A stretch of 64,000 bases of DNA. Origin: Patescibacteria group bacterium. GTDB lineage: Bacteria > Patescibacteriota > Microgenomatia > UBA12405. Below, piece after piece: positions 32,875 through 35,583 of the stretch (the first letter of the stretch is position 1; every line of letters begins with the position of its first letter). The stretch spans positions 12,124 through 76,123 of the forward strand of contig JAHIPV010000001.1 in assembly GCA_018902845.1 (NCBI GenBank), in the 5' to 3' direction. Both the position numbers and the translations under genes were made by a program. The notes under the pieces were generated by a model. That model saw nothing but the letters and a program-made list of their open reading frames with translations. It was not told where the DNA came from and did no database searches.

Positions 32875-34750
32875 TATAATACCTCCACACTTAACTTACT
32901 GTTGCCTAATTGCAAAAAACCTCCAAAAGATTTCCAAATCCGAGGAGTTTTTAATTTGTCTAAAGCAACTAAGTTAAAAGTACCTTAACATCAATCAATG
33001 TGCGTTTTCATTAGTCATGATTGTTAGTATCAGAGGATGAAATCCTGATGATTTTGTTTACAAAATCTATTAGGATATTTTTTCAAAACTTTTTTCAGTT
33101 TATTTAAAACTGAACCCCTTGCAGATTAAAACCTGTCAAGGGTTGATACTAAGAGTTTGATCGTGGCTCAGGGTGAACGCTGGCGACGTGCCTAAGACAT
33201 GCAAGTCGAACGAGATTCGTATTTTACATAAGGAAATTACATAATAATTTTCTTGTGTAGAATACGATGACAGTGGCGAACGGGTGAGTAATAAGTACGA
33301 ACGTACCTCTAAGTGGAGCATAGCCTCGAGAAATCGTGGATAATACTCCATAGTCCTCGTATTTCATACAAGGAAATTCAAAGCACTAATATCTAAACTC
33401 AAAACTTTTTTGTTTTGGATTTTGAATATTTAGATTTTAAATTTATTTAGGATTTCGATATTAGAATTTAGGATTTTCTCGCATGGAATGCGAGGTAAAG
33501 ATTTATCGCTTAGAGAGCGGCGTACTCGCTACCAGCTTGTTGGTGAGGTAATGGCTCACCAAGGCGATGACGGCTACCGGCTCTTAGCGGAGGGTCCGGC
33601 ACAATGGGACTGAGACACGGCCCATACACCTACGGGTGGCAGCAGTTAGGAATATTGCGCAATGGACGAAAGTCTGACGCAGCGACGTCGCGTGTGGGAT
33701 GACGGCCTTCGGGTTGTAAACCACTTTTATTTCGTCATCATGGCGAGATGAATAAACAGCTACTAATTACGTGCCAGCAGTCGCGGTAATACGTAAGCTG
33801 TAAGCGTTACCCGGTTTTATTGGGCGTAAAGGGTCTGTAGGTGGTTTTTTAAGTCCTATTTCAAAGACTCCGACTTAATCGGAGAAAGGGGTAGGATACT
33901 GAAAGACTAGAGTTATATCGGGGTTACTGGAATTTATAGCGTAGGGGTAAAATCCGTGGATACTATAAAGAACACCAAGGGCGAAGGCGGGTAACTAGGT
34001 ATACACTGACACTGAAAGACGAAAGCTAGGGGAGCAAATCAGATTAGAGACCTGAGTAGTCCTAGCTGTAAACGATGTCTGTTAGTTCTACGAGCTTATG
34101 CTTGTGGGATGTAAGCTAACGCGTTAAACAGACCGCCTGGGGAGTATAGCCGCAAGGCCGAAACTCAAACGAATTGGCGGGGAGGCGCACAACCAGTGGA
34201 GCATGTGGTTTAATTCGATACGAAGCGATGAACCTTACCTGGGCTTGAAATCCTGTTTATGTTTTTCCCGAAAAGGAAAAACTCAGTGGCAGGACAGCTG
34301 TTGCATGGCTGTCGTCAGCTCGTGACGTGAGTTGTTCTCTTAAGTGAGGTAACGAGCGCAACCCCTATTCTGTGTTATTTTTTCACAGAAGACTGCTCAG
34401 CATTATTTTTGTTGGGAGGAAGGAGGGGACGACGTCAAGTCAGCATGATGCTTATGTCCAGGGCGACACACATCCTACAATGGGAAGTACAATGAGTTGC
34501 AATACCGCGAGGTGGAGCTAATCTATAAAACTTCCCTCAGTTGGGATTGCAGGCTGAAATTCGCCTGCATGAACTTGGAATTGGTAGTAATCGCAGATCA
34601 GCAGACTGCGGTGAATACGTTCTCGCCTCTTGCACACACAGCCCGTCAAATCAGCAAAGTTGAGGGTGCCCGAAGGACTCCGATCAATCGGAGGACTAAG
34701 GTAAATTCAGCGATGAGGGTTAAGTCGTAAATTGTTGCGACTCATGGAAG

Positions 34751-35471
34751 TAATTCCATGAACAAATCTGGCTGTATCGGGGAAATCTAAGTCCTAGTGT
34801 TAAAATTAGGATATGACAACCGCGAGGGAACCCGACCGTTTTTCTAAAAAACAACCGGGACTCCGTAGAGACTATACGCCAGCGCCTCAAATCAGTAAAT
34901 CTTATTTACTTGGAATTTTGCACGACGCCACAGAAAGAAAAACAACTTTTAGAATTAGTCAAAAAAGTGAAATTTTTGTCAAATTTATTGCCAAAGAAAT
35001 CAAAAGACTTGGTTCTGGAGCTTGGGTCTATAAAGAAGGGAAAAACAGAAATGTCTACGTTGTAGAATTTTCAAAAAGTTTTCTTAAAGGATTCAAGATA
35101 AAAACCAGACAAGACAAAATTGACTACATTCGAGGTTATTTTGATTCTGAGGGAGGTATTGCACATCATCCAAAAGTTCGTTTTTATATTTATTTTTCTC
35201 AAAAAGATATAAATGATCTTAAGGAAGTTAAGCAATGTCTCAAAGAATTAAATATTTCTTGTGGAAAAACGCATAATCCAAGCAAAAAAGTAGATCCTGA
35301 TTATTGGCGATTTTATATTTTAAGCAAATCTTACAAAGATTTTGCTAAAATTATTGGGTCCTTCCACCCAATCAAGAATCGTCTTTTGAGGATGAAGAGA
35401 TAGTCCGTACCCTTGGAAACAAGGGAATCGATTTTATTAGTTTTTTTAATAATTAAGTAAAATCAAATGAA
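34751..35471 (+). mobile_element. Intervening sequence (probable group I intron) in 16S rRNA at the E. coli ~1506 site, carrying a homing endonuclease ORF
   Basis: Insertion between conserved ...GGTTAAGTCGTAA and CAAGGTATCCGTACTGGAAGGTGCGGATGGATCACCTCCTT. Contains ORF 34813..35403. Confidence 0.6.
34813..35403 (+). CDS. LAGLIDADG-family homing endonuclease (intron-encoded)
   Basis: LLGILHDATE and IRGYFDSEGG are the two LAGLIDADG motifs of a single-chain homing endonuclease. The ORF lies wholly within the 16S insertion. Confidence 0.65.
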   Translation: MTTAREPDRFSKKQPGLRRDYTPAPQISKSYLLGILHDATERKTTFRISQKSEIFVKFIAKEIKRLGSGAWVYKEGKNRNVYVVEFSKSFLKGFKIKTRQDKIDYIRGYFDSEGGIAHHPKVRFYIYFSQKDINDLKEVKQCLKELNISCGKTHNPSKKVDPDYWRFYILSKSYKDFAKIIGSFHPIKNRLLRMKR

Positions 35472-35583
35472 CAAGGTATCCGTACTGGAAGGTGCGGATG
35501 GATCACCTCCTTTGAGGTTAACTCAAAATCCCTCTGATACTAACAATTTTGACTAATAGCACATTGATTGATAACAAAAAATT

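Follow-up and report, generated by a model that had tools for sequence, protein, structure and literature searches.

Our analysis of a 64,000-nucleotide (nt) stretch of the genome of a Patescibacteria group bacterium (assembly GCA_018902845.1, contig JAHIPV010000001.1, positions 12,124 to 76,123 of the forward strand; hereafter the window, to which all positions refer) found that its 16S rRNA gene is interrupted by an insert of 741 nt, recognisable from its sequence as a group I intron at position 1498 of the small subunit (SSU) rRNA. The insert contains an open reading frame (ORF) for a LAGLIDADG homing endonuclease, and we consider it highly probable that the whole is a mobile, self-splicing SSU/1498 group I intron, related to class IB4, residing in the single-copy-type and unlinked 16S gene of a bacterium from the Microgenomates group of the candidate phyla radiation (CPR). 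For this copy, we infer the self-splicing, the cleavage activity and target of the enzyme, and the choice of start codon. The interrupted gene is composed as follows.

33145..35513, + strand, complete 16S rRNA gene (start from RF00177, end from the anti-Shine-Dalgarno sequence, spliced sequence aligned end to end with Escherichia coli rrs)
33145..34728, + strand, exon 1 (AAGTCGT ends at 34728; its last U is E. coli U1498)
34729..35469, + strand, group I intron of 741 nt at site SSU/1498 (Rfam half-hits, junctions of homologues, covariation)
35470..35513, + strand, exon 2 of 44 nt (AACAAGGUA..., helix 45 and anti-Shine-Dalgarno tail)

A preliminary description of the window, made from the letters alone, had seen that the conserved 3' block of the gene is split, and this holds: GTCGTAA runs up to 34730 and CAAGGTA resumes at 35472, with the 741 nt in between. 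The same description had put the insertion at 34751-35471 (721 nt), a start that is 20 nt too high, as its own parse gives 34731-35471 and 741 nt. The splice junction that it proposed, GTCGTAA/CAAGGTA, is ruled out because the homologues keep ...GUCGU before the intron and G/AACAAGG after it; group I rules and 64 homologues place the junctions between U34728 and A34729 and between G35469 and A35470. Aligned to E. coli rrs, where the T of AAGTCGT is position 1498, the insertion falls between U1498 and A1499, and removal of the intron leaves the junction GTCGU/AACAAGGUA. The 64 loci with an intron at the identical site, whose 5' splice sites were located by requiring pairing with the guide sequence together with the J6/7 core motif, show exon 1 as ...AAGUCGU, exon 2 as AACAAGG and an invariant terminal intron G, while the guide sequence reads GCGAC and the first bases of the intron vary. 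It is this combination of variable intron starts with an invariant ...G/AACAAGG that fixes the junction at U1498/A1499. Exon 1 reads U-AAGUCGU at 34721-34728, with a U where E. coli has G1491, a trait common to most of the Microgenomates loci fetched. All E. coli numbering follows the 1542-nt rrs (locus L086), and the copy from E. coli Nissle 1917 (L085; NZ_CP007799.1, 4339815-4341330) was left out; its annotated 16S has just 1516 nt and is aberrant before position 1492, which is probably an assembly error.

With the intron, the gene has 2369 nt when the count runs from the first model position to its final base; once spliced, it has 1628 nt. The preliminary description was right about its presence and slightly short about its span, given there as 33152-35512 (2361 nt). 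In the Rfam scan the bacterial SSU rRNA model RF00177 matches from 33145 with 1247 bits; AGAGTTTGATC stands near the 5' end at 33152-33162, and the true 3' end is the anti-Shine-Dalgarno sequence GGATCACCTCCTT at 35500-35512. The model match itself stops at 34772, inside the intron, with its last ~30 positions put on unrelated P1-P2 sequence. We rejected this placement of the 3' end on 34729-34772 as a forced fit, the real helix 45 and anti-Shine-Dalgarno sequence being at 35470-35513. Annotation in the style of Infernal/Rfam can therefore assign such genes a wrong 3' end and lose the real 44-nt exon 2 with its anti-Shine-Dalgarno sequence.

The Rfam group I model (Intron_gpI, RF00028), a kind of model suggested for a check in the preliminary description, picks up the two halves of the insert separately, one at 34719-34895 with 44.4 bits (E 7e-10) and one at 35248-35426 with 31.0 bits (E 8e-6), and group I structure is present. 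The models of group II intron domains V and VI gave no match in 34600-35620 even at E up to 10, and a group II reading was dropped on that account. The strands of the ribozyme are assigned as follows, with percentages of alignment cells that are paired.

34723..34742, + strand, P1 hairpin, its 5' side (exon AGUCGU, intron AA) paired to UU and GCGACU on its 3' side
34732..34736, + strand, P10 strand UUGUU, pairing with AACAA at 35470-35474, the first five bases of exon 2
34743..34760, + strand, P2, stem of 7 bp capped by a GUAA tetraloop (94% paired)
34768..34772, + strand, P3 5' strand CUGGC, with partner GCCAG at 34878-34882
34777..34825, + strand, P4 (34777-82/34820-25; 98% paired) enclosing P5/P5a at 34786-34816 (P5 91% paired)
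34826..34864, + strand, P6/P6a/P6b extended hairpin, the outer two G-C pairs invariant in 61 sequences
34870..34875, + strand, P7 5' strand GACUAU, pairing with AUAGUC at 35400-35405
34885..34891, + strand, P8 5' strand CCUCAAA, with a perfect 7-bp complement, UUUGAGG, at 35385-35391
35400..35405, + strand, P7 3' strand AUAGUC, which includes the ORF stop UAG at 35401-35403
35410..35425, + strand, P9, CCCUUG-GAAA-CAAGGG, from the Rfam alignment; in homologues a GNRA-capped stem of varying sequence
35430..35469, + strand, peripheral A+U-rich, P9.1-like hairpin at 35430-35464 followed by AAAUG, from sequence reading

At the 5' splice site, exon bases AGUCGU (34723-28) pair with GCGACU (34737-42), the wobble pair U34728.G34737 lying at the site itself, within an internal guide sequence that spans 34732-34742. 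P3 and P7 form the pseudoknot in which the guanosine-binding site lies, and the Rfam alignment shows conservation of the J6/7-P7 and J8/7-P7' blocks. The terminal base of the intron is G35469 (omega-G), as the last base is G in 64 of 64 homologous introns. For P8, the 5' arm that Rfam places in the second half-hit (~35248) was dropped in favour of CCUCAAA and UUUGAGG. The inner stems of P6, a part that is variable and aligns poorly, come from sequence reading together with the Rfam alignment, and the peripheral hairpin at 35430-35464 is found in few relatives only. A variant of P4 with a G.G mismatch and compensated neighbouring pairs is common to the 6-7 closest family members, whose ORFs end in ...MKR and a stop.

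The pairings can be followed in a scan of relatives restricted to one genome per species (152 relatives), from which 80 loci were kept. These are mostly CPR bacteria of the Microgenomates group (Shapiro-, Woese-, Collier-, Levy-, Gottesman-, Davies-, Ames-, Chisholm-, Blackburn- and Curtissbacteria), and some loci are archaeal (Micrarchaeota, Aenigmatarchaeota, Nanosalinarum and Thermoplasmata). For P1 to P6, in a MAFFT alignment of 61 5' halves, 90.6% of cells hold standard pairs, a share that falls to 40-45% if the partners are shifted by 1-3 columns. Of the 33 pairs, 20 change on both sides, and the covariation score of 0.497 (0.07-0.15 when shifted) was reached by none of 500 shuffles. All seven pairs of P2 have changed on both sides, P3 is paired in 99.7% of cells with four of its five pairs changed on both sides, P4 has four covarying pairs, and P6 is paired in 100% of cells. 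P1 consists of the invariant pairs G-C, U-A, C-G, G-C and U.G, the splice-site U.G occurring in 61 of 61 sequences, and two genomes (L030 and L050) show a compensatory change from C-G to U-A, with exon AAGUUGU and guide GCAAC. Pairs in P7, P8, P9 and P10 were counted in ORF-deleted mini-introns from the 64 homologues. P7 has five invariant pairs, its support being complementarity and conservation, not covariation; P8 is 82% paired with several compensatory types; P9, which aligns poorly, is 74% paired; and P10 is paired in 80% of cells, its three pairs nearest to the splice site forming in 57-60 of the 64. P5a, P6a/b, P9 and P9.1 are too variable in MAFFT for sound pair counts.

This architecture bears on another set of explanations, namely that the insert is a decayed intron, a retained expansion segment, or an RNase III-type intervening sequence (IVS) excised without ligation, with the 16S rRNA left non-functional or fragmented. 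Many uncharacterised insertions are known from CPR rRNAs (PMC11270868), and the same gene does contain a hairpin of a non-intron kind.

33355..33495, + strand, helix-10 expansion, a long hairpin about 120 nt larger than in E. coli (Rfam alignment, fold z-score)

The helix-10 insertion measures 121 nt in the Rfam alignment, has a fold z-score of -6.4 and contains the inverted repeat I1; aligned to rrs, its extra bases fall after E. coli positions 206 and 231. As a simple extended hairpin it looks like an RNase III-type IVS. A smaller expansion lies in helix 6 (~33213-33268), neither of the two is intron-like, and it is chiefly in these two helices that the spliced 16S exceeds the E. coli gene. 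The insert at 1498 is of another nature: U1498/A1499 lies in the universally conserved strand of the decoding centre and not at the tip of a helix, and the core is a covarying, pseudoknotted group I core of many helices and no simple hairpin, for which reasons the IVS hairpin was dropped. Moreover, excision without ligation would cut off the 44-nt tail with helix 45 and the anti-Shine-Dalgarno sequence, purifying selection acts on an ORF that is unbroken, and a leader-trailer stem (described below) brackets the entire gene as in a working rRNA unit. We consider any of these explanations very improbable.

Within the intron, the ORF occupies the loop of P8 and extends into the core on both sides.

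34813..35403, + strand, endonuclease ORF of 196 amino acids (from the ORF list), starting in the P5 3' strand and ending in the P7 3' strand
34906..34935, + strand, LAGLIDADG motif 1, LLGILHDATE, non-canonical, with HD where I-DmoI has GD
35128..35157, + strand, LAGLIDADG motif 2, IRGYFDSEGG, its E113 lying opposite the catalytic residue E117 of I-DmoI in the alignment

The 196-residue product with both LAGLIDADG motifs, already pointed out in the preliminary description, was recovered in full here: it matches Pfam PF14528 (LAGLIDADG_3) over two stretches with 51.5 bits (cutoff 22.5, E 1.2e-13), it has 513 homologues, and it is 100% identical to an NCBI protein named 'LAGLIDADG family homing endonuclease [Patescibacteria group bacterium]'. 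An AlphaFold (AF2) model built from 33 homologues (mean predicted confidence, pLDDT, 86.1) has a disordered N-terminus of ~27 residues and two alpha-beta-beta-alpha-beta-beta-alpha halves, with helices (H) and strands (E) at H29-38, E45-50, H53-65, E70-74 and E82-87 in the first half and at H99-112, E115-117, E125-130, H133-145, E165-169 and H171-181 in the second. The best Foldseek match in the PDB is full-length I-DmoI (E 6e-9), followed by I-Tsp061I (E 7e-7). Searched by sequence, the PDB yielded no significant chain match to the protein, and a family profile produced a marginal match to I-DmoI only (E 0.09); the putative relationship to I-DmoI is seen by fold alone, in the predicted structure. 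The endonuclease gene is kept by purifying selection, with a ratio of nonsynonymous to synonymous substitution (dN/dS) of 0.11, at a dS of about 1.0, between the P8-loop part of the ORF and its homologue from a Shapirobacteria genome, 79% identical. The peptides conserved at its two ends, M.IPREP...GLRRDYT at the N-terminus and LRMK plus stop at the C-terminus, coincide with strands of the ribozyme core, and they are conserved because it is the core RNA that encodes them. Some homologues start ~27 codons later (170-residue forms), at a place where the window has ATC.

Some observations weigh against our reading of the insert as a self-splicing intron with a working homing enzyme. Both Intron_gpI half-hits fall below the gathering score of 50 bits, which happens because the ORF takes the place of the P8 loop and splits the model; the ORF-less homologues at position 1498 in Thermoplasmata 16S genes, at 63.4-70.1 bits, are above it. 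P4 contains a G.G mismatch at 34780/34822, where 50 of the 61 homologues have G-C. In the protein, motif 1 reads HDAT; in a plain alignment with I-DmoI the catalytic position is taken by Ala instead of Asp, and D38 stands one residue before the place of I-DmoI D21. With an invariant His-Asp in the place of Gly-Asp-Gly, the first catalytic residue is not certain. Finally, the sole canonical start codon, ATG at 34813, lies inside the P5 helix and has a poorly spaced AGGA that ends 1 nt upstream (both within 34808-34815), which makes expression of the enzyme uncertain as well.

The mismatch in P4 and the non-canonical placing of the acidic residue in motif 1 could also be accommodated by a real intron that does not splice autonomously and needs a host factor or its own LAGLIDADG protein as a maturase, the endonuclease being perhaps a nickase or inactive. 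Some LAGLIDADG proteins, I-AniI for example, also act as maturases. We regard such a dependence on protein as unlikely, however, because the core is intact and covaries in all its helices, in the U.G pair, in omega-G and in P10, and because several diverged relatives have the same variant of P4, which is hence tolerated. On the side of the enzyme, H37 and D38 of motif 1 are invariant in the 33 homologues and the dN/dS of the ORF is low, and the strict site-specific spread over bacteria and archaea, together with the existence of close relatives without the intron, argues for an active homing enzyme. A different and more tentative idea, which we would call possible but doubtful, starts from the fact that about the first 27 codons of the ORF cross P5, P4, P6, J6/7, P7 and P3. 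Translation and ribozyme folding might then be mutually exclusive and constitute a switch between splicing and endonuclease production, and together with the HD form of motif 1 this might define a distinct sub-family. If so, the sub-family would be distinct in mechanism and would have passed between CPR bacteria on one side and archaea (DPANN or Thermoplasmata) on the other.

The source of the window is a metagenome-assembled genome, and assembly chimerism, raised as a possibility in the preliminary description, could in principle have joined a 16S fragment to an unrelated fragment with an intron and an endonuclease. Four independent assemblies (ENA ERZ27247108, NCBI GCA_018895885.1 (JAHINU010000010.1), Logan SRR6516043 and SRR35107481) agree at 100% identity over the 5 kb from 32001 to 37000, or over the part of it that each contig contains, and for this reason we dropped a chimera, which is also at odds with an intron guide sequence that pairs with both flanking exons and with the same arrangement in 64 other genomes. 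We regard it as extremely improbable.

As for mobility, alleles without the intron were sought by scanning metagenome contigs for the uninterrupted junction GGGTTAAGTCGTAACAAGGTATCCGTA. Intron-less 16S genes 87-89% identical to that of the window were found, several of them on contigs of 56-156 kb; these contigs (L091, L102, L122, L152, L158, L171 and L184) represent the closest relatives found. The nearest intron-bearing 16S among the loci of the relatives scan, from Ca. Shapirobacteria (L001), is 84.6% identical, which, like the NCBI name Patescibacteria, agrees with the CPR host proposed earlier. With intron-less genes at 87-89% and an intron-bearing one at 84.6%, the presence of the intron among close relatives is patchy, a distribution that would fit the mobility of a homing element. 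The protein family strictly co-occurs with the 1498 site in 64 genomes.

For a mobile, self-splicing group I intron the course of events would be as follows. Gene and intron would be transcribed as one unit, bracketed by the leader-trailer stem and ended by the terminator, with the intron taking up its P1-P10 fold. The attack on the phosphate after U34728, at the U.G pair of P1, would come from an external guanosine bound in P7; P10 (UUGUU/AACAA) would align exon 2, G35469 would enter the G site, and the exons would be ligated, restoring the universal decoding-region sequence AAGUCGU-AACAAGGUA. The product of the P8 loop would be a monomeric I-DmoI-type LAGLIDADG endonuclease with two domains, and the enzyme could recognise and cut the uninterrupted sequence around 1498 in intron-less 16S alleles. 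Repair from the intron-containing copy would then insert the intron, completing homing.

The transcription unit to which the gene belongs is delimited by three further elements.

32990..33036, + strand, pre-16S processing stem, 5' leader arm (inverted repeats I2 and I6)
35531..35572, + strand, pre-16S processing stem, 3' trailer arm, pairing with the leader arm
35586..35610, + strand, intrinsic-terminator-like hairpin of 11 pairs with a T run, at the end of the 16S unit

The leader-trailer stem has 41 bp around the whole gene, intron included (32990-33003/35559-35572 and 33010-33036/35531-35557), and is made of the repeats I2 (27 nt, 93%) and I6 (14 nt, 100%); it looks like an RNase III-type processing stem of pre-16S rRNA. 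The Rfam scan found neither large subunit (LSU) nor 5S rRNA in the whole 64-kb window, and no tRNA stands beside the 16S gene, the only tRNAs of the window being Cys at 3853 and Tyr at 30837. Having its own processing stem and terminator and no 23S gene behind it, the 16S gene forms a stand-alone unit. Here the preliminary description, with a terminator at 35584-35613, no 23S after the 16S and unlinked rRNA genes, was accurate, and unlinked rRNA genes are common in Patescibacteria (bioRxiv 10.1101/705046). Directly past the terminator, at 35616-36208, a near-consensus promoter-like site (TTGACA-17-TATACT) precedes a gene pair for a RelB antitoxin and a YafQ toxin. Farther away, at 44131-44599 on the minus strand, lies a transfer-messenger RNA (tmRNA) gene whose 469 nt exceed the 374-position model through large middle insertions (63.5 bits, gathering score 47).

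In practical terms, a 16S gene of 2.37 kb instead of ~1.5 kb matters for surveys that rely on conserved primer sites, two of which diverge in this gene.

33771..33792, + strand, 515F region, with a single internal mismatch, C>T at E. coli 525
33627..33646, + strand, 338 (EUB338/341F) region, with two mismatches, at E. coli 340 and 349

In the 338 region, where the string lies at 33629-33645, the changes are T>A at 340 and A>T at 349, which together make a compensatory swap of U-A to A-U within one helix. The divergence of both sites had been noticed in the preliminary description, and the mismatches are there; for 515F, with its one internal mismatch, its conclusion that standard primers would fail goes too far. 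A stronger effect, which it had overlooked, should come from the intron itself, which divides the site of primer 1492R (E. coli 1492-1510). Given the split 1492R site and the mismatches in the 515F and 338 regions, amplicon surveys are likely to count too few such organisms or to overlook them.

Group I introns at SSU/1498 are known from archaea. Nawrocki, Jones & Eddy 2018 (NAR, PMC6125680) assigned those of Nanohaloarchaeota and Micrarchaeota to class IB4 and pointed out that the 1498 site was new. Their intron IB4.19 (MNVH01000001.1 13564-12830, Micrarchaeota) is our locus L068, whose ORF is 51% identical to that of the window; the window intron lies at the same position, and by homology to L068 it would be related to the IB4 introns. 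The archaeal introns share with it the insertion site, the P1 guide, the J6/7-P7 and J8/7 blocks and a homologous endonuclease, and differ in their hosts, DPANN and Thermoplasmata archaea as opposed to a CPR bacterium. Some archaeal copies differ in content too: in L066, L067 and L070-L074 (Thermoplasmata and related archaeal metagenome-assembled genomes) the 1498 group I intron has no ORF and measures only ~230-250 nt, and a free-standing gene for a full endonuclease homologue lies just downstream of the 16S gene, ~200 nt from its 3' end. In L067, for example, the intron is at 2541-2773 and the endonuclease, of 177 amino acids, at 3004-3537. This arrangement could be an intermediate in the gain or loss of the endonuclease, or a case of 'collaborative homing'. 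The window thus adds one more case to the load of rRNA introns in CPR bacteria, with an intron and endonuclease family that is common to DPANN and Thermoplasmata archaea. Such sharing across domains bears on the inter-domain transfer of mobile introns; the intron load and the sharing can both already be found in the literature.

The enzymes nearest in fold, I-DmoI and I-Tsp061I, are encoded in archaeal bulge-helix-bulge introns, not in group I introns. Like the window ORF, I-DmoI (from the 23S intron of Desulfurococcus mobilis; PDB 1b24, 2vs7) and I-Tsp061I (from an archaeal 16S intron; PDB 2dch) are monomeric, two-motif enzymes of ~190 amino acids encoded in rRNA introns; the window ORF differs from them in an identity of only ~20% and in a motif 1, LLGxLHDAT, that lacks the canonical GDG. 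A likeness of another kind, by description and not by sequence, is offered by giant sulfur bacteria (Salman et al. 2012, as summarised in PMC11270868), in which self-splicing group I and II introns with LAGLIDADG genes likewise lengthen the 16S gene and defeat PCR surveys; there, host phylum and insertion sites are different.

The closest known counterparts are those of the CPR bacteria themselves. Of the 380 CPR 16S genes surveyed by Tsurumaki et al. 2024 (J Bacteriol, PMC11270868), 48% carry insertions, and position 1498 (their 16IS10) is a frequent site of group I introns encoding LAGLIDADG_2 or LAGLIDADG_3. In their data LAGLIDADG_3 (PF14528) ORFs occur in 16S insertions only (39 ORFs, 35 of them within group I introns), and the 16IS10/1498 site is unreported in non-CPR bacteria. 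Brown et al. 2015 are cited there as the first to have noted such CPR introns, and as the source of the finding that CPR rRNA insertions are absent from transcripts. The window shows every trait of 16IS10: position 1498, a CPR 16S gene, a group I-like insert beyond the threshold of at least 100 bp, and a PF14528 ORF. Host group, gene, E. coli position, intron class and Pfam family of the ORF are all the same, and nothing substantive differs. In that survey insertions are defined by alignment to E. coli, without exact splice junctions or helices, and the CPR LAGLIDADG proteins are predominantly single-domain, whereas the window ORF appears as a two-motif monomer by its model and fold match. I-ShaI, the enzyme assayed in the same study, is a LAGLIDADG_1 homodimer from a 23S intron and belongs to another family. 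The kinship with the rRNA introns described for CPR bacteria that had first been proposed for this insert is therefore real, and the intron of the window is an ordinary member of a family already described in CPR bacteria and small archaea.

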